From an uncultured delta proteobacterium (GTDB lineage Bacteria > Myxococcota_A > Polyangia > Polyangiales > Polyangiaceae): a stretch of 64,000 nucleotides of DNA. The DNA lies in the NCBI GenBank assembly GCA_963782055.1, contig CAWAIF010000003.1, positions 3,104,001 through 3,168,000 of the forward strand. The letters run 5' to 3'. Position numbers and translations under genes: made by a program. Below, piece after piece: positions 53,145 through 63,383 of this stretch; position 1 is the first letter of the stretch, and each line of letters begins with the position of its first letter. The notes beneath the pieces were generated by a model, which searched no databases, had not been told where the DNA came from, and saw only the letters and a list, made by a program, of their open reading frames with translations.

Positions 53145-54881
53145 TCACTTTCCCAGCCAGCCTTCCAGGAGGGCGAGCTGGTCGGGGGTCGCGTCCTTGC
53201 GGCGCGTGAGCTTCACGCGGTCCAGGCGGGGCGGGTCCAGTGTCACGTCCAGGGAGCGGATGCGGCCCTCACGGGCGACCAGCACCGGGACGACGTCCTT
53301 CTCCTTCTTGCCGGAGAGCGCGGCCTCCACGCCCGCCGGATCCAGGACGCGACGTCCGGCGACCGCCACCAGCTCGTCGCCCGGGTCCACGCCCGCGCGC
53401 TGGGCCGCGCCGCCGCGCAGGACGCTCGCCACGTGCACGCGCGCCCCGTCGCCGCGCGTGCGCACGCCCAGGCTGCCGCTCGGCTCCCCCTTGGCGTGGC
53501 GCTCCACCGAGAGCCCGGCGCGGGCGAGCGTGGCGTCGTAGTCGATCTCGTGGGCGCCCCGCACCCAGGCGTCGAAGAGATCGCCCATCCTCGTCCCGGC
53601 GACGTGCTCGAAGATCTCCTGCATGCCGTCCTCCGGCACCGGCCGCTGGTGCCGCCCGAACTCGTTCCACAGGTGGGCCAGCACCGCGTCGAGCGAGGCC
53701 TTGCCGCCGGAGCGCGCGCGCAGCTCCAGGTCGAGCAGCGCGCAGACCATCTCCCCCTTGCGGTAGTAGCTCACCGAGCTGTTGGTGCTGTTCTCGTCCG
53801 GCCGGTACAGCTTCACCCACGCGTCGAAGGAGGCCTCCTCCAGCGGGTGCACCAGCCGCCCCGGTGTCTGGTCCAGGTACGCCACCTCGGTGGCGAGGTG
53901 GTCGAGGTACTCGGTCTCGGTGCAGAGCCCGGCGAGGCGGAGCACGCGCCAGTCGTAGTAGCTGGTGGCGCCCTCGAACCACCAGAGCAGGCGCGTGTGG
54001 TTCTCGTCCTGGTAGCGGTAGGGGTGAAGGCCCGCGGGGCGGATGCGCTTGACGTTCCAGAGGTGGAAGTACTCGTGGGCGACGAGGGAGAGCAGGTCCA
54101 GGGTGCCGTCGTGGGTGTCCATCGCGGTGGCGGAGGCCAGGAGGGACGAGGACGCCAGGTGCTCCAGGCCGCCGCGCCCGCGCGGGGACAGGTGCAGGAT
54201 GAAGGTGTAGCCCTCGTGCGGGAGGGAGCCGCCGAAGAGGCTCGCCTCCGTCTTCACGATGGTCGTCGTGGCCTCCACCAGGCGGCGCAGGTTCGCCTCG
54301 CTCAGCGACTCCGGCGGCCAGACGGCGAAGCGGTGCGGCTTGCCCGCCGCCTCGAAGCGCGCCTCACGGAAGGAGCCGACCTCCATGGGGCTGTCGACCA
54401 GGGTGTCGTAGTCGGCGGCGAGGAAGCGCGGGCGCGCCTCGGCGGCGCCCTCGACCGGAGGCATCGCGGTGGCGACGCGCCAGCCGGAGGGCGCGAGCAG
54501 CTCCACCTCCGCCGGGGCGCCCAGCCGGCCCTCCACCGCGAGGAAGGTGGAGGCGCCGTTGAGGTACCAGTGCGTCGTGTCGACGTGATTGGTGCGCACG
54601 GTGAGGTCGTTGGCGTAGACGCGATAGCGGACGGTGAGCTCCTTGGCGCCGTCGTGCGCGACCGTCCACGCGTTCTTGCGCGTCTTGCGGACGGGGTGTG
54701 TCGGGCACGTCAGGCCCTCCACGTGCCGCGCGTACTCACGGACGAGGTACGAGCCGGGCGTCCAGGACGCCATGAAGAGGACGAGCGGGGAGGGCAGGGG
54801 CTGATCGGACGAGACGGTGGTCTCCACGTCGACGAGGTGCGCGTGGGGGTCGGACACGGAGACGCGGTGCACGAGGCGCAT
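53145..54881 (-). CDS. M61 glycyl aminopeptidase with PDZ domain
   Basis: WTPGSYLVRE, GGLEH, HEYFHLWNVKRIRP, EGATSYY, SYYRKG; C-terminal PDZ. Confidence 0.92.
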   Translation of the reverse strand: MRLVHRVSVSDPHAHLVDVETTVSSDQPLPSPLVLFMASWTPGSYLVREYARHVEGLTCPTHPVRKTRKNAWTVAHDGAKELTVRYRVYANDLTVRTNHVDTTHWYLNGASTFLAVEGRLGAPAEVELLAPSGWRVATAMPPVEGAAEARPRFLAADYDTLVDSPMEVGSFREARFEAAGKPHRFAVWPPESLSEANLRRLVEATTTIVKTEASLFGGSLPHEGYTFILHLSPRGRGGLEHLASSSLLASATAMDTHDGTLDLLSLVAHEYFHLWNVKRIRPAGLHPYRYQDENHTRLLWWFEGATSYYDWRVLRLAGLCTETEYLDHLATEVAYLDQTPGRLVHPLEEASFDAWVKLYRPDENSTNSSVSYYRKGEMVCALLDLELRARSGGKASLDAVLAHLWNEFGRHQRPVPEDGMQEIFEHVAGTRMGDLFDAWVRGAHEIDYDATLARAGLSVERHAKGEPSGSLGVRTRGDGARVHVASVLRGGAAQRAGVDPGDELVAVAGRRVLDPAGVEAALSGKKEKDVVPVLVAREGRIRSLDVTLDPPRLDRVKLTRRKDATPDQLALLEGWLGK

Positions 54882-55498: not shown

Positions 55499-57598
55499 TC
55501 ACGGGTCCACCACGTAGGCGTCCAGGTCCCACGTGCCCTTCTGGCCGCCCCACCCGTCGATGATCACCCAGTAGGTGCCCGGCGCGAGGGTCTGGTCCAG
55601 GAAGCTGCGCGGGCCGCTGAAGGAGTAGTTGCAGGCGATCTCGGTCCCGGGGCAGCTCGTGCCCTGGCGGAGCGCGAGGATGGTGCCGTAGCTCGAGCCT
55701 TCCATGCTGAGCACCACGCGCTTCTTCTGGGCGAGCACCAGGCGGAGGATCTGGTCGGCCGCGCCGCCCTTCGGCTGGTTGGCGGCGTCGCAGCTGTCGT
55801 CGAAGTCGGGGTTGTGGGTGGTGGTGTCGCCGGTGAAGTAGCCGCCGCTCGCCGGGATGTCGACGAAGGTCCCGCAGTCGTCGGCGCCGGGCACCGCGGT
55901 CGAGGCGACGGTGGGCCGCGCGAGGGTGGTGAGCGTGCCCTGCTGGCCAAAGGTGTCGCCCACCACCGCGCGGTAGCTACCCGCGGCGAGGTTGCGCTTG
56001 CCCGCGCGCACCGGGGTGGACGCCGCCCAGCACAGCAGGTTGTCTGCCTGGGTGCAGCCTGGCGCGTCGAGCGACACCGCGCCGTAGTCGTTCTGCGGGT
56101 AGCGCGCGACGACCAGCACGTCGCTCGGCACGCCCAGCTCCACGTCGTACGCGGCGGTGGGCGCGCCGGGGTAGCAGCCGTCCTGGATGGCGTCCTCGTG
56201 GTTCGCCAGGTCGAAGGGGAGGGTGCCGTTCAGGGTGGCCGGCGGCGCGGAGGAGCACAGCTCGTCGGCGGGCGAGGTGGTGGGCGCGGCGAGCTGCACC
56301 AGCACGCTCGCGTCGATGGGCGTCGTCGCCGCCACGGTGAGCACGTAGGTCCCCGCGGGCACGCCGCGCGCGAAGAGCGGGAGCGAGCTGCCCTTCTTGC
56401 AGTGCAGCTCGTCGGTCTGGCCGGAGCAGCTCGGCGCGCGCAGCCCGACGACCGGCTGGCCGGCGCCCTTCAGCGTGGAGGCGTAGACGCGCACGTCCTG
56501 GGCCTGGGCGAGGGTCAGGGAGTAGGTGAGCTCGCCGGTCACCGCGCCGCACGCGTCGGGGAGATCCAGGCTGGGATCGACGAGGGAGACGGTGGTGGGC
56601 GTGCCCGGCGCGATGGGCGTGGCGGTGCCGCAGTCCTCGTTGGCCGCCTTCGGCGTGGGGGAGAGGAAGTCCACCGAGAGGGTGACCGACGTCTCCAGCG
56701 AGGAGGTGACGACGACGTAGTAGGTGCCCGGCGCCACGTCGCGGGCGCGCGCCCGTGTGCTCCACGCGCCGGCGCCCGCGCCGCACGCCAGCTCGGAGAC
56801 CGGCTGGCCGCACGCCGACTGGATGGCGACCGACATCTCGCCGTTGGTCGGCCCGGCGACCCACACGTCCAGGTCCGCGTTGGGCCCGGCCGGCACGGTG
56901 ACCGCGGCGACCACGTCGTGCGCGGTCTGCGGCTTGCTCACCGTGCAGGAGGTCTGGAAGGTCTTGCCCGCCCCGGCGGTGCTCATGGCGTAGGTGCCCG
57001 GCGCGGTGATGGACATCGCCGTCTGGCAGGTGGCGTTCTGGGCGCTCACGCACCCGGCCTCGTCGGTCTGGCCGTTGCAGTTGTCGTCGACGCCGTTGCC
57101 GCAGATCTCCGAGTGCTTGCTGGAGACGTTGGGGTCGAGATCGTTGCAGTCCCCTCCGCCCTTGCACACCGCGTCGGGATCGCCGTCCTGGTCGAGATCG
57201 CGCGGCTCGTGGGTGCACGACTTGTCCGCCTCGACGCACTTGCTGATCTCGCACGTGGAGGAGGAGCACGCGACGACGGGGCCTGGCTGGCAGCCGCTGG
57301 TCCGCTTGCACAGCTCCTTGCCGTTGCAGAAGACGCCGTCGTCGCAGAGCGTGTCGTCGGGGGTGTTGCGGCAGCGCAGGAGCTGCGGATCGCAGGTGTC
57401 GAAGGTGCAGGCGATGCCGTCGTCGCACTGGGAGTCGTCCTGGCAGGGGGCTCCCAGGATGTCGGCGTCCTCCCCGCCGTCCCCGGTGGAGGCGTCGGGG
57501 GCGTCGGCGCCGGCGTCGAAGGGGTGGACGTTGTTGTCCGGAACCGGCCCGTTGCCGCACGCGACGAGGAAGGCGGCGAGAAGGAGGGCGCGGCGCAC
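55499..57598 (-). CDS. Cys-rich surface lipoprotein with MopE-like putative metal-binding motif and repeated PPC-like beta domains
   Basis: LVAC lipobox; CDDGVFCNG; DCNDLDP...EICGNGVDDNCNG; repeated GTYYVVV/GTYWVIIDG modules. Confidence 0.78.
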   Translation of the reverse strand: MRRALLLAAFLVACGNGPVPDNNVHPFDAGADAPDASTGDGGEDADILGAPCQDDSQCDDGIACTFDTCDPQLLRCRNTPDDTLCDDGVFCNGKELCKRTSGCQPGPVVACSSSTCEISKCVEADKSCTHEPRDLDQDGDPDAVCKGGGDCNDLDPNVSSKHSEICGNGVDDNCNGQTDEAGCVSAQNATCQTAMSITAPGTYAMSTAGAGKTFQTSCTVSKPQTAHDVVAAVTVPAGPNADLDVWVAGPTNGEMSVAIQSACGQPVSELACGAGAGAWSTRARARDVAPGTYYVVVTSSLETSVTLSVDFLSPTPKAANEDCGTATPIAPGTPTTVSLVDPSLDLPDACGAVTGELTYSLTLAQAQDVRVYASTLKGAGQPVVGLRAPSCSGQTDELHCKKGSSLPLFARGVPAGTYVLTVAATTPIDASVLVQLAAPTTSPADELCSSAPPATLNGTLPFDLANHEDAIQDGCYPGAPTAAYDVELGVPSDVLVVARYPQNDYGAVSLDAPGCTQADNLLCWAASTPVRAGKRNLAAGSYRAVVGDTFGQQGTLTTLARPTVASTAVPGADDCGTFVDIPASGGYFTGDTTTHNPDFDDSCDAANQPKGGAADQILRLVLAQKKRVVLSMEGSSYGTILALRQGTSCPGTEIACNYSFSGPRSFLDQTLAPGTYWVIIDGWGGQKGTWDLDAYVVDP

Positions 57599-57624: not shown

Positions 57625-59556
57625 CTACTTCCTGATGTGCGGCGGCGGCGGCGGATCGGGGGGCGGCAAGTTGACCGTCGGCCGCGGGAGCGGGTCGGGC
57701 GGCGGCGGGAGCGGTCGCTTGCCGGCGTCGGGCCTGGCCATCGGCGTGGGCAGCGGATCGTTGGGCATGACCGTGGGTGGCGGCACCGGATCGGGCGGCG
57801 GGATGGTCTCGGTCGGCGTCGCGGTGGTGGCGGCGTCCGGCGTCTCGACCAGCGTCGGGACAGGGAGCGGGTCGGGTGGCGGCGGCGCCGTCGCGTGGTC
57901 GCACGCCGTGAGCGGAATGAGCGCCAGCGTCGCGGCGCTCAGGGCGCCCCAGCGCGAGGCCGTCCGCGCCCGCCTGGCGACCTTCGGGGCGATCGCGGCC
58001 CGGACGATCGCGTTGGTCCCCTCCTGCACGCGCGCCTCGAGCTCCACGTTGGCGCGCTCCACCTCCTCGGTCATCCGCGCGGTGAAGTCCTGGAACGCGG
58101 CGGGGTCCTCCGACGTGCTCGACTCGGCGAAGTCGAGGATGCGGACCATCTTCTCGTTGCAGTCCAGGTTGACCGCGCGCGTCGTCTCGGTCGTCATCTC
58201 GCGAAGCTGCTGCGTGAGGGCGTGCGGGTAGAACGTGCGGAGCAGGTGCAGGTGGTAGCCGAGGCCGAGCGTGGAGTTCATCAGGCCGTCGCACCGGAAG
58301 TTGCGATCCAGAAAGGCGCTCGCGAAGACCCGGAAGGCGCGCTCCGCCCTCGGATCGCGGATGGCGTAGTCCCAGCCGAAGACGTCGCCGCGCAGCCGGC
58401 CCTCGCGCTCCAGCTTCGTCATGAGCGGCGTGCCCACGTAGATCTCGGTCCGGCAGAAGTTCATCGGCACGTCGGCGTATTCGCGCAGGAAGGCGAAGCT
58501 CTGGCGGAGTGACTCCAGGCGGGACTCGGGGTCGAAGACGAGCATGTTGAAGCACGCGTAGACGTCGCGATCGCGCAGGAACTCGAGCGCGCGGCGGTTG
58601 GTCTGGAGGTCGACGCTGCGCCCGAGCGTCCGGAGGCCCTGCGTAGAGCCCGCCTCGATGCCGATGTAGACGCGCAGCAGGCCGATCTCCCGCAGCACGG
58701 AGAAGACGCGCTCGTCCACGTCGTCCGGTCGCGCCTTGACGACGAGGGCGACGTCGTCGACCCGCCGCGCCTTCAGCGCGTCGCGCAGCGCCTCCATGCG
58801 GGCCAGGTCGCGATCGTGATCGCGCGTGAAGAAGTCGTCGTCGTGGAAGACGAACATGCGCGCGCCGCGAGTCCGGCGCAGCTCCGCCATCTCGTCGGCG
58901 ACGTTCTCCGGGCTGCGCCAGCGGTACATCTGGCCGCCCGCGGACTTGAGGTACGCGTGGATGCAGCAGAAGGTGCAGTGCCCGAAGCAGCCGCGCGTGC
59001 CCACCATGAAGGCCGCGGGGACCCCGAGGTGGAGCTGCGGCTGGCCGGTACGCTTCGGGAAGGGGAGGGCGTCCAGGTCCTCGATCAGCGGTCGCGGCTC
59101 GCTCGCCACGACCGCGCCGTCGTCGGCGCGGTACGCGAGGCCACGGATGCCGGCGAGGTCCGCCAGGCGGCCGCCGCGCTCGACGGCGCGGCACAGCTCG
59201 ACGATCGTCACCTCGCCCTCGTGACGGACGATGGAGTCGATGGCCGGGAAGGCCTCCAGGCACTCGCGGTAGGCGAAGGTCGGGAAGTGCCCGCCGCCGG
59301 TGACGTGCCCGCCGTAGCCGTGCTCGCGGAGCGCGGAGGCCAGGGCGCCGAACTCTCTGGCGCGGAACTGGAACGTCATCGACATGCCGACGAGCGCCGG
59401 CCGCGTGCGCGCGACGGCGTCGAGCACGTCCCCGGTGTCGCCCGGACCGTTGAACGTCGCGAAGTGCGGCGTGTGTCCCGCCGCTTCCAGCGCGGACGCC
59501 AGGTAGCGGAGGGCGAGATTTTCTTCGAGCTCGGCGCCGACGAGAAGAACGTCCAT
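57625..59556 (-). CDS. B12-binding radical SAM enzyme (class B methyltransferase-like) with C-terminal lipobox and Pro/Asp repeat tail
   Basis: GGHFPT and HEGE (cobalamin domain), RGCFGHCTFC, FHDDDF, YIGIEAG; GGAAAGGGAG RBS. Confidence 0.88.
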   Translation of the reverse strand: MDVLLVGAELEENLALRYLASALEAAGHTPHFATFNGPGDTGDVLDAVARTRPALVGMSMTFQFRAREFGALASALREHGYGGHVTGGGHFPTFAYRECLEAFPAIDSIVRHEGEVTIVELCRAVERGGRLADLAGIRGLAYRADDGAVVASEPRPLIEDLDALPFPKRTGQPQLHLGVPAAFMVGTRGCFGHCTFCCIHAYLKSAGGQMYRWRSPENVADEMAELRRTRGARMFVFHDDDFFTRDHDRDLARMEALRDALKARRVDDVALVVKARPDDVDERVFSVLREIGLLRVYIGIEAGSTQGLRTLGRSVDLQTNRRALEFLRDRDVYACFNMLVFDPESRLESLRQSFAFLREYADVPMNFCRTEIYVGTPLMTKLEREGRLRGDVFGWDYAIRDPRAERAFRVFASAFLDRNFRCDGLMNSTLGLGYHLHLLRTFYPHALTQQLREMTTETTRAVNLDCNEKMVRILDFAESSTSEDPAAFQDFTARMTEEVERANVELEARVQEGTNAIVRAAIAPKVARRARTASRWGALSAATLALIPLTACDHATAPPPPDPLPVPTLVETPDAATTATPTETIPPPDPVPPPTVMPNDPLPTPMARPDAGKRPLPPPPDPLPRPTVNLPPPDPPPPPHIRK

Positions 59557-59696: not shown

Positions 59697-60722
59697 TCAG
59701 TCGTCGTGCCGGATGCACCGGACGACGCCGACGGGGTCCTCCGCGCAGATCCAGTCGGAGCCGCCGAAGACCGCGCGCGCCGGGCCGGCGCCGGGGACGG
59801 GGACGAGCTTCCACGAGTGGTCCAGTCCGCAGAGCAGCTGCCCGGCGCGGTCGACGGCGCACGGCACGTCGCCGGGCGGCGGGCTCGAGCCCGGCGCGGC
59901 CGCGTCGGGGGTCATCTGCACCACGCCGGTGGCCACCTGCGTGACGGGCCCGGCGAGCTTCCGCGTCGCGAGGAGGCGGCCGTCGCGGGTGAGCACCCAG
60001 AGCGCCTCGTCGCTCTTCCAGATGCGCGCGGCGTCCTTCACGCCCGCGACGGGCTGCGGCGTGGCGGCGACGTCGTGGTCCACGCAGGCGACGCCGCCGC
60101 CGCGCTCGCGATAGCAGGAGCGCGTGGCGTACCAGCTGCTCGCCGCCTGCACCGCGTCGTGCACCGCGCGGACCTTCGCCCAGCCCGGCGACGCGTAGCC
60201 GATGGCGTCCCGGTTGGTGGTGACCGAGAGGGTGCCGTCGCGGTGGGAGGCCGCGTGGAGGCCCAGGCTGGTGAGGTCGGCGAGTCGCGGCGGCCCCTGC
60301 GTCGCCTTGTCGGCGGGCGGCACGTTGCAGACGAGGGCGCCGCCGTCACCCACCCCGCAGAGGAAGGTGAAGCCCCAGATGGCGCTGGGGGAGGTGATGG
60401 GCGTGGTCGCGAGGGGGCCGAGGCCGACGGACGCGTCGAGGCAGCGGACGCCGGCGGCGGTCGTCGCGCAGAGCGACGTGGTGGCCGAGAAGACGTCGCG
60501 CGCGCCCCGGAAGGTGTCGACCGGCTTCCACGCGGCGTCCCAGCGCGCCGCGGGCGGCGCGGGCGGCCGCGGCTCCCGCGCGCTGGCGGGCGCGGCCGGC
60601 GGGTGCGCCGCCGCCAGGCTCGGGGTCTGCGCGGGCGCGGGCGCACCAGCCCCCGCACCGCCGCAGGCCGCGAAGGCAACGAGGGGCGCGAGGAGCGGGC
60701 CGAGCGTGTCGTGGAGGCGCAT
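59697..60722 (-). CDS. Lipoprotein with degenerate RCC1-like repeats
   Basis: FAAC lipobox; repeated C-A-x(3-4)-G-x-V-x-C units. Confidence 0.6.
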   Translation of the reverse strand: MRLHDTLGPLLAPLVAFAACGGAGAGAPAPAQTPSLAAAHPPAAPASAREPRPPAPPAARWDAAWKPVDTFRGARDVFSATTSLCATTAAGVRCLDASVGLGPLATTPITSPSAIWGFTFLCGVGDGGALVCNVPPADKATQGPPRLADLTSLGLHAASHRDGTLSVTTNRDAIGYASPGWAKVRAVHDAVQAASSWYATRSCYRERGGGVACVDHDVAATPQPVAGVKDAARIWKSDEALWVLTRDGRLLATRKLAGPVTQVATGVVQMTPDAAAPGSSPPPGDVPCAVDRAGQLLCGLDHSWKLVPVPGAGPARAVFGGSDWICAEDPVGVVRCIRHDD

Positions 60723-60774
60723 GACCATGCGGCGTAGCCGTGCGCCCGAAACGCGTCAACGCGGTGGGAGTAAC

Positions 60775-61281: not shown

Positions 61282-61686
61282 TCAGGTCAGGCGCAGCACG
61301 ATCCCGTGCCGCGGATCGCGCTGCGGCTCCGGCGCGGGCAGCCCGCGCAGCGCCTCCCACAGGATGGCGCGCGACCGCTCGTCCATCTCGCAGAACTCGA
61401 TCCCCAGCGCGCGACCGCGATCGCCCGGCCGGCGTCCGTGCACGACCCGCGCGACCACCGCCGCGGCGTCGACCCACTTGTTGGTGCTGGGCGGGCGGAA
61501 GGCGACCACCACCTCCTCGCCGGTCAGGACCTTCTCGCGTGTCGAGATCAGCATCCCGTCGGTGGACAGATCCAGCGCGAGATCGCCGATGACACGGAAG
61601 TCGTGCTCCCGCACGACCTGGCAGTCGAGCCGCACGAAGCGGCGGAAGGCCCTCCGGGGCCGCGGGCGGGAGAGAATGGCGCTCAT
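61282..61686 (-). CDS. PilZ-domain protein
   Basis: RRAFR (RxxxR) and DLSTDG (DxSxxG) motifs, GIEF. Confidence 0.85.
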   Translation of the reverse strand: MSAILSRPRPRRAFRRFVRLDCQVVREHDFRVIGDLALDLSTDGMLISTREKVLTGEEVVVAFRPPSTNKWVDAAAVVARVVHGRRPGDRGRALGIEFCEMDERSRAILWEALRGLPAPEPQRDPRHGIVLRLT

Positions 61687-61723: not shown

Positions 61724-63328
61724 TTACGGCGAGCCGTCGTCGCCCTGATCGTCCTCGTCGAGCGGAACGTCCGCCTCGTCCGGCGTGATGAGGACGCTGA
61801 TCTGCCCGTCCGCGCCGCGCGTCAGGATGGGGGCGAACACGCCCACCGGCTCCCGCGTCCAGTAGCGGCCTGTCGCGCGCAGGATGGCGGGCGTCGTCAT
61901 GTGGTACTGCCAGAGCACCGCGCGCACGTAGCGCGGCGGGCGCCCGTGGAAGGGGTCGTACGCGAAGAGGGCGAGCACGTCGGGGGAGCCCTCCAGCAGC
62001 CGCTGCTCCACGCCGACGACCCAGGCGTTCCGTGTCCACGGCTCGAGCGAGGCGAACCACAGGTTCCACTCGAAGCGCGGCTGGTACGGCGCGAAGATCC
62101 CCGGCGCCGCGTCCAGACGCTGCGGCTTGTAGCGGAAGGGGTACGGGGTCCAGCGCGCGTCGTCGTCGGAGCCCTCGAAGGCGATCTCGTAGCGCGCGGG
62201 GGTCATGGTGGCGAAGAGGCCGTAGCGGTTGGCGACGCGCAGCGGCTCCAGCAGCGCGGCGGGGGCGTCCAGCGCGCGGATGGGCTCCGGCGCGCCGGCG
62301 AAGGCGAAGGTGGCGATGGTGGCGTAAAACAGCCACGAGAGCGCCACCGCGGAGACCCACGCGCGCCACCGCGGGGGCGGTCGCGGCGTGGCGGCGCGCC
62401 GCGCGCGCCTCGCGAACGGCAGCCCGATCCGCGCCAGGTGGCCGTCGTCCAGCAGCAGCACGCCGAGCAAGAGCACCAGGTAGTTGAGGAAGCAGTAGTT
62501 GGAGGTGGCGATGATCCCCACCTGCAGCGCGGAGAGCACCCCGAACACCCACGGCCGCACCCTGCGCGGGCCGAACATCAGCCACACGAAGGGCAGCTCG
62601 ACGAAGAGGGTGAGCGCCGCCGTCGCCGCGTGGAAGCCGTGCGGGAGCTGCTGCGCCCACCAGCCGATCCACGTCGGGAGCGGGCCGTTCTCGTAGTAGT
62701 GGTCCATCGCGGTGAAGTTGCGCCACGTCGGATCACCGCTCGCCAGCTTGGCCACCCCCGACTCGAAGTAGATACGGAAGCACTCCCATAAGAGGAGGAA
62801 GCGCGCCGCGCGGCTGGGCGGCCGGTCTGCGGCCAGGCCGGGGAAGAGCCCCGCGGGGAAGAAGAAGAGCCCGATGGCCGTCGCCTCGAGGAGCATCCCG
62901 TCGGACTGGTAGGAGGAGAACTCCTGCGCCGCGGTGACGAAGGAGACGAAGAGCACCCCGCACACGAGCAGGCTGGCGCGCGGCGCGACGCCCAGCAGCA
63001 GGGTGAGCGACGCGACGAGCCCGAGGACGACGAGCGCGGACAGCGCGGCGTCGGAGGAGTCGATCCACAGCAGGGAGGGCACGTACCAGAAGCGCGCGAG
63101 CGGGTGCGCGTGGCGGACGTAGGGCAGGAGCTGCGCGACAGGCAGGATGCCGCGCGCGCCGATGAGCCCGTGGATCTGGTAGGCGAGGGAGTAGAAGACG
63201 GAGAAGTAGATCGCGCCCATCGCGCGCCCGAGGATCCAGCGCGCTCCCAGGAACCCGGGCGTACGCGCGTCGGGCATGAAGAGCGCGTCGAAGAGCTTGC
63301 GCCGGTCCTCGGGGTCGGACAGGTCCAC
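61724..63328 (-). CDS. Lipase maturation factor (LMF1) family membrane protein
   Basis: YQSDGMLLE, SGVAKL, HYYENGPLP, YGLFA, APYQPRFEW; start may extend to 63343. Confidence 0.88.
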   Translation of the reverse strand: MDLSDPEDRRKLFDALFMPDARTPGFLGARWILGRAMGAIYFSVFYSLAYQIHGLIGARGILPVAQLLPYVRHAHPLARFWYVPSLLWIDSSDAALSALVVLGLVASLTLLLGVAPRASLLVCGVLFVSFVTAAQEFSSYQSDGMLLEATAIGLFFFPAGLFPGLAADRPPSRAARFLLLWECFRIYFESGVAKLASGDPTWRNFTAMDHYYENGPLPTWIGWWAQQLPHGFHAATAALTLFVELPFVWLMFGPRRVRPWVFGVLSALQVGIIATSNYCFLNYLVLLLGVLLLDDGHLARIGLPFARRARRAATPRPPPRWRAWVSAVALSWLFYATIATFAFAGAPEPIRALDAPAALLEPLRVANRYGLFATMTPARYEIAFEGSDDDARWTPYPFRYKPQRLDAAPGIFAPYQPRFEWNLWFASLEPWTRNAWVVGVEQRLLEGSPDVLALFAYDPFHGRPPRYVRAVLWQYHMTTPAILRATGRYWTREPVGVFAPILTRGADGQISVLITPDEADVPLDEDDQGDDGSP

Positions 63329-63383
63329 GCGCTCATCATGCACGAAGCGAGCGCGCCCGGAGACGTGCTAGATCCGCGAGGTC

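Follow-up and report, generated by a model that had tools for sequence, protein, structure and literature searches.

The class B (cobalamin-dependent) radical S-adenosylmethionine (SAM) enzymes, for which C-methylation is the commonest reaction, include OxsB, TsrM, TokK, CysS and MgmA/QCMT, all of which combine an N-terminal B12-binding domain with a core that carries a CxxxCxxC motif. MgmA/QCMT, the glutamine C-methylase of methyl-coenzyme M reductase, modifies a residue of a protein, and thus provides a precedent for a protein substrate within this class. Here we describe a relative of these enzymes that is encoded in a 64,000-nt stretch of DNA from an uncultured soil myxobacterium of the Polyangiaceae (assembly GCA_963782055.1, contig CAWAIF010000003.1; hereafter ‘the window’). 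The gene, located at 57625–59556 on the minus strand, specifies a 643-aa protein (the numbering of which is used throughout) that shares the domain order of the above enzymes, and then continues in the same frame into an internal segment resembling a lipoprotein signal and a proline-rich repeat tail. For none of the class B enzymes that Foldseek matched to the protein is a membrane segment, an export segment or a repeat tail described.

Enzymes that modify their own chain are known from the borosins (OphMA type), in which an alpha-N-methyltransferase is fused to its own core peptide, several sites of which are modified, and a prolyl oligopeptidase releases the product. The 643-aa protein shares with the borosins the logic of enzyme and putative substrate tail in one chain, but the borosin enzymes are SAM-dependent alpha-N-methyltransferases, not radical SAM enzymes, and carry no export signal. 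The likeness is in logic, not in family: Pfam gives only the B12-binding and Radical_SAM domains for our protein and no borosin-type alpha-N-methyltransferase domain. A second set of precedents is formed by anSME with the sulfatases and QhpD with QhpC, where a radical SAM enzyme in the cytoplasm alters a short motif of a protein that is later exported; these enzymes differ from the 643-aa protein in being of the SPASM rather than the B12 type and in being encoded by genes separate from those of their substrates. We propose – tentatively, and at a little less than an even chance – that the enzyme and its exported tail are a cognate pair: the tail would be modified in the cytoplasm and, once exported, would be lipidated and then cleaved by signal peptidase II.

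As judged by its domains, cluster motif and predicted fold, the N-terminal part of the protein is a class B radical SAM enzyme. The gene is a single, stop-free open frame of 643 codons that starts with an ATG at 59556, preceded by a Shine-Dalgarno-like AAGGGAG, and ends with the stop codon at 57625–57627 (all features of the gene lie on the minus strand). M1 is nearly invariant in the alignment and the start agrees with the N-terminus of the homologues. The cobalamin-binding domain, of the Rossmann type, spans residues 11–121 (59194–59526; Pfam PF02310, E 3.5e-15, 56 bits against a cut-off of 32), and was modelled by AlphaFold2 (AF2) with a predicted local distance difference test score (pLDDT) above 93. 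It is followed by the radical SAM core, residues 185–345 (58522–59004; PF04055, E 1.8e-16, 61 bits against a cut-off of 29.5), with the [4Fe-4S] motif CFGHCTFC at residues 190–197 (58966–58989), whose cysteines C190, C194 and C197 are invariant among 145 aligned sequences. The body ends with a helical region, residues 400–522 (57991–58359; pLDDT 93–99), the final long helix of which comprises residues 485–522. In the AF2 model, computed with the 145-sequence alignment, residues 1–522 are confident throughout (pLDDT 93–99; predicted template modelling score 0.84). When this body was used as a Foldseek query, it matched the solved class B enzymes OxsB, TsrM, MgmA, TokK, CysS and AprD4; the E-values of the first five range from 5e-22 (OxsB) to 7e-16, with MgmA at 4e-18. 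No named NCBIfam family attains its cut-off for the protein. The best, BchE (TIGR02026), scores 134 bits against an equivalog cut-off of 481, and the name ‘anaerobic Mg-protoporphyrin cyclase’ that some sources give to homologues is therefore unjustified.

The union of enzyme body, signal-like segment and repeat tail is not restricted to this gene. As the homologue set we took the best 120 of 765 word-index matches (56–100% identity, 559–712 aa; the named ones come from Polyangiaceae, Byssovorax, Labilithrix and ‘Myxococcales’), and nearly all of these keep the design; 9 further genomes of the order and 5 metagenome contigs have it as well. For three pairs of relatives, the dN/dS of the tail is 0.35, 0.19 and 0.24, as compared to 0.18, 0.16 and 0.26 for the enzyme body. 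The recurrence of the fusion and the dN/dS values of the tail together indicate that the fusion is real and conserved, and that the tail is maintained as protein under purifying selection. An earlier sequence-only reading of this DNA had placed the enzyme body, a lipobox and five DP repeats in one frame, which translation and Pfam bear out; among the ways in which its idea could fail, it had also named homologues lacking the tail or the DP motif, and an artefactual fusion, and neither is what the homologues show. Among public reads, two soil-metagenome DNA runs each contain 0.06 of the sampled words; no RNA set is listed.

Directly behind the enzyme body, the frame enters a basic n-region, KVARRARTASR (residues 525–535, 57952–57984), and a 17-residue hydrophobic segment, WGALSAATLALIPLTAC (residues 536–552, 57901–57951), that shows position-specific conservation in the clade and terminates in L-T-A-C, with Cys552 at 57901–57903. 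The succession KVARRARTASR, WGALSAATLALIP, L-T-A-C agrees with the lipobox pattern [LVI][ASTVI][GAS]C, and the protein’s own L-T-A-C is, by this pattern, a classical lipobox. What sets it apart from the signals of bacterial lipoprotein precursors is its place, which is not N-terminal but internal (residues 525–552 of 643, behind a 520-aa enzyme); prediction tools and the PROSITE-type rule seek a lipoprotein signal at the N-terminus. To score the junction across the homologue set, we used a pattern of at least 11 uncharged residues directly before a Cys, which is matched by 100 of the 120 sequences; two lack the Cys (P0098 and P0103) and one is truncated (P0119). Within the 100 pattern-fitting sequences, the Cys (100/100) has a small residue at -1 throughout (75 Ala, 22 Gly, 3 Ser), Leu or Ala prevails at -2, and +1 is Asp or Glu in 75.

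Charges are distributed unevenly around the segment: upstream, the clade averages 4.2 K+R against 0.3 D+E, and downstream 0.75 K+R against 2.0 D+E. By the positive-inside rule this asymmetry places the enzyme inside and the tail outside, and we infer an N-in/C-out topology with a cytoplasmic enzyme. The helical hydrophobic core ahead of Pro is about 11–15 residues long, which is the length of a signal-peptide h-region and not that of a membrane helix. Charge pattern, length and the small-residue/Cys ending thus support the view that the segment behaves like a lipoprotein signal, in line with the sequence-only reading, and the genome encodes the processing enzymes, with two matches for LspA (Peptidase_A8) and three for Lgt (LGT), all above cut-off. 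The same reading had taken the RR of the n-region as a hint of twin-arginine (Tat) targeting; this part was not borne out, as none of the 120 members has the twin-arginine consensus (S/T-R-R-x-F-L-K directly before the h-region), and the RR of the 643-aa protein sits 8–9 residues ahead of the h-region and is not accompanied by F-L. A canonical internal Tat-type motif, RRQFL or RRQFM, does occur directly after the radical SAM body in two distant members of the family (P0131 and P0144, out of the 94 long representatives introduced below), which suggests that internal segments can be true export signals in this enzyme family.

The tail comprises 91 aa after Cys552 (residues 553–643, 57628–57900), or the 92 originally reported if the Cys itself is counted; it is 41% Pro and ends in HIRK. 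It holds five repeats centred on DP, in the positions given by the sequence-only reading: PPPDPLPVP (residues 559–567, 57856–57882), which throughout the clade stands in register with the Cys, PPPDPVPPP (586–594, 57775–57801), MPNDPLPTP (597–605, 57742–57768), PPPDPLPRP (618–626, 57679–57705) and PPPDPPPPP (631–639, 57640–57666). When the tail was shuffled, five or more DPxP were found in 150 of 100,000 shuffles, and in the 7.58-Mb genome the enzyme-tail gene is the sole stop-to-stop open reading frame (ORF) of at least 60 aa with at least two PDP[LPVI]P. As had been anticipated, the repeats recur in the homologues in variable number and with freely varying spacers: across 118 sequences we counted three repeats in 28, four in 42, five in 28, six in 13, seven in 6 and eight in one. 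The end of the tail is less variable, with the last DP motif 9–12 aa from the C-terminus in 91 of 118 and a final K or R in 79 of 118, so that clade tails end in ...DP[LP]PxP-[HTY]-x-K/R (57628–57639 in the window). Ending in K/R is reminiscent of the C-terminal Lys of Braun’s lipoprotein. A docking prediction with body 1–522, tail 553–643, SAM and 4Fe-4S gave an interface score (ipSAE) of 0.01 in both runs, and carries no weight either way.

The fused clade is part of a wider family. Scanning with the enzyme body alone (HMMER) yielded 1,232 cluster representatives at E ≤1e-30; 149 new ones were listed, 94 of which are at least 600 aa long. Of 151 genomes sampled from the order, 40 contain the family, as do 38 of 401 from the phylum, and two to four copies per genome are frequent. 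A hydrophobic segment follows right after the body in 91 of the 94 long representatives, and the tails behind it are very unlike one another. Pfam, run on 62 of the 94, found nothing in the extensions of 59, and outside the two enzyme domains recorded only Ank repeats in one representative plus sub-threshold TPR_19 and TAT_signal; NCBIfam, run on seven representatives and one partner lipoprotein (see below), returned only sub-threshold radical SAM models, plus sub-threshold CglD and MtsD in P0219. Among those scanned, tails and partner lipoproteins are thus without a Pfam or NCBIfam model, and the family is unannotated.

What the dissimilar tails share is a short motif. An unsupervised motif count in a reduced alphabet, performed on the tails of the 94 representatives, returned ahhPPP 26 times (0.6 expected), hhaPhP 27 times (1.6 expected) and hhahhP 41 times (6.1 expected), which points to a family-wide motif of the form acidic-hydrophobic-hydrophobic-P-x-P, to which the DP[LP]P repeats of the 643-aa protein belong. 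By eye, its forms include VVDP[PVAL]PxDAG repeats, followed in a large clade by a conserved beta domain of about 110 aa; THMxEMAPxP; I/V-x-E-A-A-P-P-P or CEYAAPP; and PPPPDPLPxP in the 643-aa protein. In a FastTree phylogeny built from 196 enzyme bodies, 11 changes account for the D-type motif, as compared to 54.7 with shuffled labels; none of 500 shuffles got down to 11, and the clade of the 643-aa protein (23 rows, support 100) neighbours other D-type clades.

The same phylogeny contains a clade of tail-less enzymes (19 rows, support 99), including a paralogue in the same genome (G000:C3:3557060-3558577) that is 44% identical to the 643-aa protein. That the motif might also appear in a separate adjacent gene was a test set beforehand by the sequence-only reading, and this is what we observed: a gene for a motif-bearing lipoprotein adjoins the stop codon of the enzyme in 7 of the 10 tail-less loci with downstream sequence. 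In five loci, the same-genome paralogue among them, the lipoprotein starts between -38 and +20 nt from the enzyme stop; the starts in L045 and L054 were judged by eye. At the locus in our genome (L002, G000:C3:3555560-3560077), two lipoprotein genes with GY.VVDPMPxPxRC stand in tandem behind the tail-less paralogue, and the first of them encodes an N-terminal leader, RRLGLMPEVLPAPT, ahead of its signal peptide. P0121, the tail-less sister of the clade, was not found in the 401 genomes of the phylum, and a metagenome scan for it gave only fused clade members at 43–55% identity.

The partner lipoprotein of this genome, P0274 (L002:653-1357, minus strand), has 81 homologues, all ‘hypothetical’ and with no Pfam domain. 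VVDP[ML]PxPxxC is found in 79 of the 81, and an N-terminal leader, PE[VIL]LPxP, in 76; it lies before the signal peptide, about 40 residues ahead of a classical lipobox Cys. An alignment of 74 of the homologues shows most of its invariant or nearly invariant positions in three places, the leader, the signal peptide (lipobox Cys) and the motif, the others being R31, C205 and the nearly invariant A133 and G208; the mature beta-sandwich is otherwise poorly conserved. AF2 models this beta-sandwich at residues 125–234 (pLDDT >90; two invariant cysteines, C122 and C205). Foldseek gave P0274 no match at E ≤0.001, and its best hit, the DsbD N-terminal domain (E 4e-3, TM-score 0.22–0.43), is too weak to use. 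The E-V-L-P-x-P of the leader and the D-P-M-P-x-P of the mature part are two versions of one motif, one on each side of the signal. We infer that the leader recruits the enzyme where the genes are separate, as the covalent link would do in the fused forms. As read from the sequences, the motif travels with the enzyme family, either fused to it or encoded next door, which constitutes a genetic coupling of enzyme and motif.

If enzyme and tail are indeed a cognate pair, the sequence of events could be as follows. The enzyme would act on the motifs of the tail before export, either in cis or on other copies, C-methylation being a candidate chemistry by analogy with the commonest class B reaction. 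The internal signal would then drive Sec export of the tail, Lgt would lipidate Cys552 and LspA would cut before it. The outcome would be release of a modified, lipid-anchored proline-rich peptide, while the enzyme would be held at the membrane by the spent signal and so end up in the state of the natural tail-anchored enzymes P0190, P0206 and P0253. A more specific version, which we regard as unlikely, is an ‘enzyme – signal peptide – substrate’ polyprotein. Here the radical SAM domain would serve as a covalent leader: once it had modified the acidic-hydrophobic-hydrophobic-P-x-P motifs in the tail to which it is joined, signal peptidase II would sever it at the internal lipobox, and it would remain in the membrane as a tail-anchored protein. 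As product, a lipid-anchored modified polyproline rod with a conserved C-terminal Lys/Arg would result, and in the split relatives the PEVLPxP leader, which precedes the signal peptide, would replace the covalent link. On that assumption, the product could be, by analogy, a tie between membrane and cell wall in these myxobacteria, similar to Braun’s lipoprotein.

Several observations weigh against the cognate-pair proposal. Since the motifs lie beyond the export signal, the enzyme would have to act before translocation, and providing one 520-aa enzyme per tail would be costly unless the enzyme also works in trans. The junction is not uniform: in 17 of the 120 homologues a short insertion with a polar or acidic residue separates the hydrophobic run from the Cys (…SAVDC, …VTDC, …AGMEGC), and among the 100 pattern-fitting sequences position -3 is Pro in 66 and Leu in 23, so that the common form, P-L-A-C, is not classical at -3. 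In the wider family the segment ends in Cys in 65 of the 94 long representatives, 56 of these with a small residue at -1. The tail of the AF2 model is of low confidence (pLDDT 36–69), and 3 of the 10 tail-less loci have no clear motif-bearing lipoprotein downstream (one has an ambiguous small ORF, two have nothing). That motif type follows the enzyme clades amounts to clustering and is no proof of co-evolution, because kin share labels and the statistic overstates it. In the small clade of P0190, P0206 and P0253, a true membrane helix of about 20 residues stands at the very C-terminus and there is no exported tail; these members are tail-anchored radical SAM enzymes, and membrane tethering alone can be the point. 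Finally, modification, export, lipidation and cleavage are all hypothesised from sequence.

The strongest competing explanation is a plain membrane anchor. An uncleaved signal-anchor may simply tether the enzyme to the cytoplasmic face of the inner membrane, where it would act on another substrate, lipid or protein, the tail being a periplasmic spacer unlinked to catalysis. The sequence-only reading had offered such a plain anchor as its alternative, and we consider it somewhat unlikely but a serious rival: the charges fit an N-in/C-out anchor, a true membrane helix at the C-terminus is all that P0190, P0206 and P0253 possess beyond the enzyme, and the named NCBIfam families that come nearest include the lipid-modifying class B enzymes HpnR and HpnJ and the ladderane lipid radical SAM enzyme, all of them far under their cut-offs. 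Proline-rich periplasmic spacers are known from TonB, and the case for modification of the tail is itself drawn from sequence. What the anchor does not account for is the ending of the segment, with a core of only about 11–15 residues before Pro and A/G/S-Cys in 100 of the 100 pattern-fitting sequences, features required of a cleaved lipoprotein signal but not of an anchor; nor would a mere spacer be expected to keep one motif across unrelated tails and in separate neighbouring lipoproteins, or to track enzyme clades. Alternatively, the exported tail, lipidated or not, might use its repeats and basic C-terminus to hold on to a partner in the periplasm, the peptidoglycan or the outer membrane, so localising or regulating the cytoplasmic enzyme, or it might be a structural envelope element that arises as by-product of a polyprotein. 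The conserved C-terminus (K/R last in 79/118, last motif 9–12 aa from the end in 91/118), the conserved beta domain that other clades carry after the repeats, and a polyproline-rich composition suited to an extended rod are all in keeping with such an envelope-spanning tether, and in Braun’s lipoprotein it is the C-terminal Lys that attaches the peptidoglycan. We nevertheless deem it improbable, as it leaves unexplained why a radical SAM enzyme is the motif’s constant partner, and no conserved partner gene is found nearby in nine loci.

Two further explanations would do away with the fusion itself. A separate small lipoprotein could be made from an internal start upstream of the signal, in which case the fusion would be only apparent. 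A suitable GTG (Val of ...LEARVQEG...), with GAGG before it, does lie 42 codons ahead of Cys552; yet the same Val is GTC in three of the five loci read (L004, L005 and L006), Met is not enriched before the signal (0.015, as compared to 0.022 in the body), and the frame is continuous in all full-length homologues, which makes this explanation very improbable. As for a lost stop or frameshift that joined two genes during sequencing or assembly, its likelihood is negligible given the presence of the fusion in more than 100 independently assembled homologues, in addition to the 9 other genomes of the order and 5 metagenome contigs.

The surroundings of the gene are not shared with its relatives: across nine loci of the clade with 2–6 kb of flank no neighbour gene is conserved, nor is any in the 1.5-kb flanks, and the only gene in common is the enzyme-tail gene, with the tail as the one companion that the enzyme keeps throughout. 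In the window, all neighbours given here lie on the minus strand. Starting 27 nt past the stop codon, the downstream gene (55499–57598) encodes a 699-aa predicted lipoprotein (MRRALLLAAFLVAC...) with a Cys-rich MopE-type putative metal-binding motif (PF11617, E 6.7e-9), and the upstream gene (59697–60728) another predicted lipoprotein, of 343 aa (…LVAFAAC…), for which neither Pfam nor NCBIfam gave a match; neither is conserved beside relatives of the enzyme. Further out are a 134-aa PilZ-domain protein (61282–61686), a 578-aa M61 glycyl aminopeptidase with a PDZ domain (53145–54881) and a 539-aa protein (61724–63343) that LMF1 and LMF1_C match strongly (E 8e-45 and 5e-42); the lipase maturation factor family to which these belong is known mainly from eukaryotes.

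Returning to the proposed cognate pair of enzyme and exported tail, its closest described counterparts in terms of route are the DAG-RiPPs, hybrids of lipoproteins and peptides that are made on the ribosome and modified after translation (RiPPs). In lipo-DybAH and lipo-NedABC a precursor with a lipoprotein signal peptide is modified in the cytoplasm by oxidative enzymes that depend on multinuclear non-haem iron (MNIOs) and then processed by Lgt and LspA, yielding a lipidated, membrane-bound product, as shown experimentally (PNAS 2026, PMC13056109). The order, modification followed by the lipoprotein pathway, is the one proposed here; the DAG-RiPPs differ in that their MNIOs are encoded by separate genes and their signal peptide is N-terminal, whereas in our protein the enzyme occupies the place of the leader. 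Neither ‘radical SAM’ nor ‘fused’ occurs in the main text of that paper. In bufferins and oxazolins, likewise, MNIOs modify the precursors before export; these precursors, which include whole proteins, carry Sec signal peptides, and about 16% of Buf2 precursors are predicted to have lipoprotein signals (PMC12452194). They differ from the present system in enzyme family, in their Cys-based motifs and in that enzyme and precursor are unfused; the accessible part of PMC12452194 makes no mention of radical SAM or of a fused enzyme. A related radical SAM enzyme with a conserved C-terminal tail motif is the CUAEP/CCAEP-tail radical SAM (seleno)protein (NCBIfam NF040546), here compared by model name only; our protein matches the model weakly (E 6e-6, 25 bits where the cut-off is 500), and the tail of NF040546, going by the name, is a short Cys/Sec motif.

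A search of full-text literature, with most subscription journals outside its coverage, brought up no report in which a radical SAM enzyme is joined to a lipobox or an export signal; a paper on Tat tail-anchored proteins (PMC10924467) turned out to have no bearing on the question. The system combines three sets of precedents – class B radical SAM enzymes, enzyme-substrate fusions and RiPP-lipoprotein hybrids – in a combination of which we found no description in print. Were the tail to serve as an anchor and nothing else, a family of class B radical SAM enzymes held at the membrane and bearing an extracytoplasmic domain would still be new. Should the tail be the substrate, the newly recognised RiPP-lipoprotein hybrids would gain their first radical SAM member, and a simple motif would be implicated as the site of a new protein modification, in a system as compact as one gene or, in the split form, two adjacent genes. 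It would, furthermore, be the first case of a modifying enzyme placed upstream of an internal lipoprotein signal, with signal peptidase II separating enzyme from product, and would widen what counts as a lipoprotein precursor.

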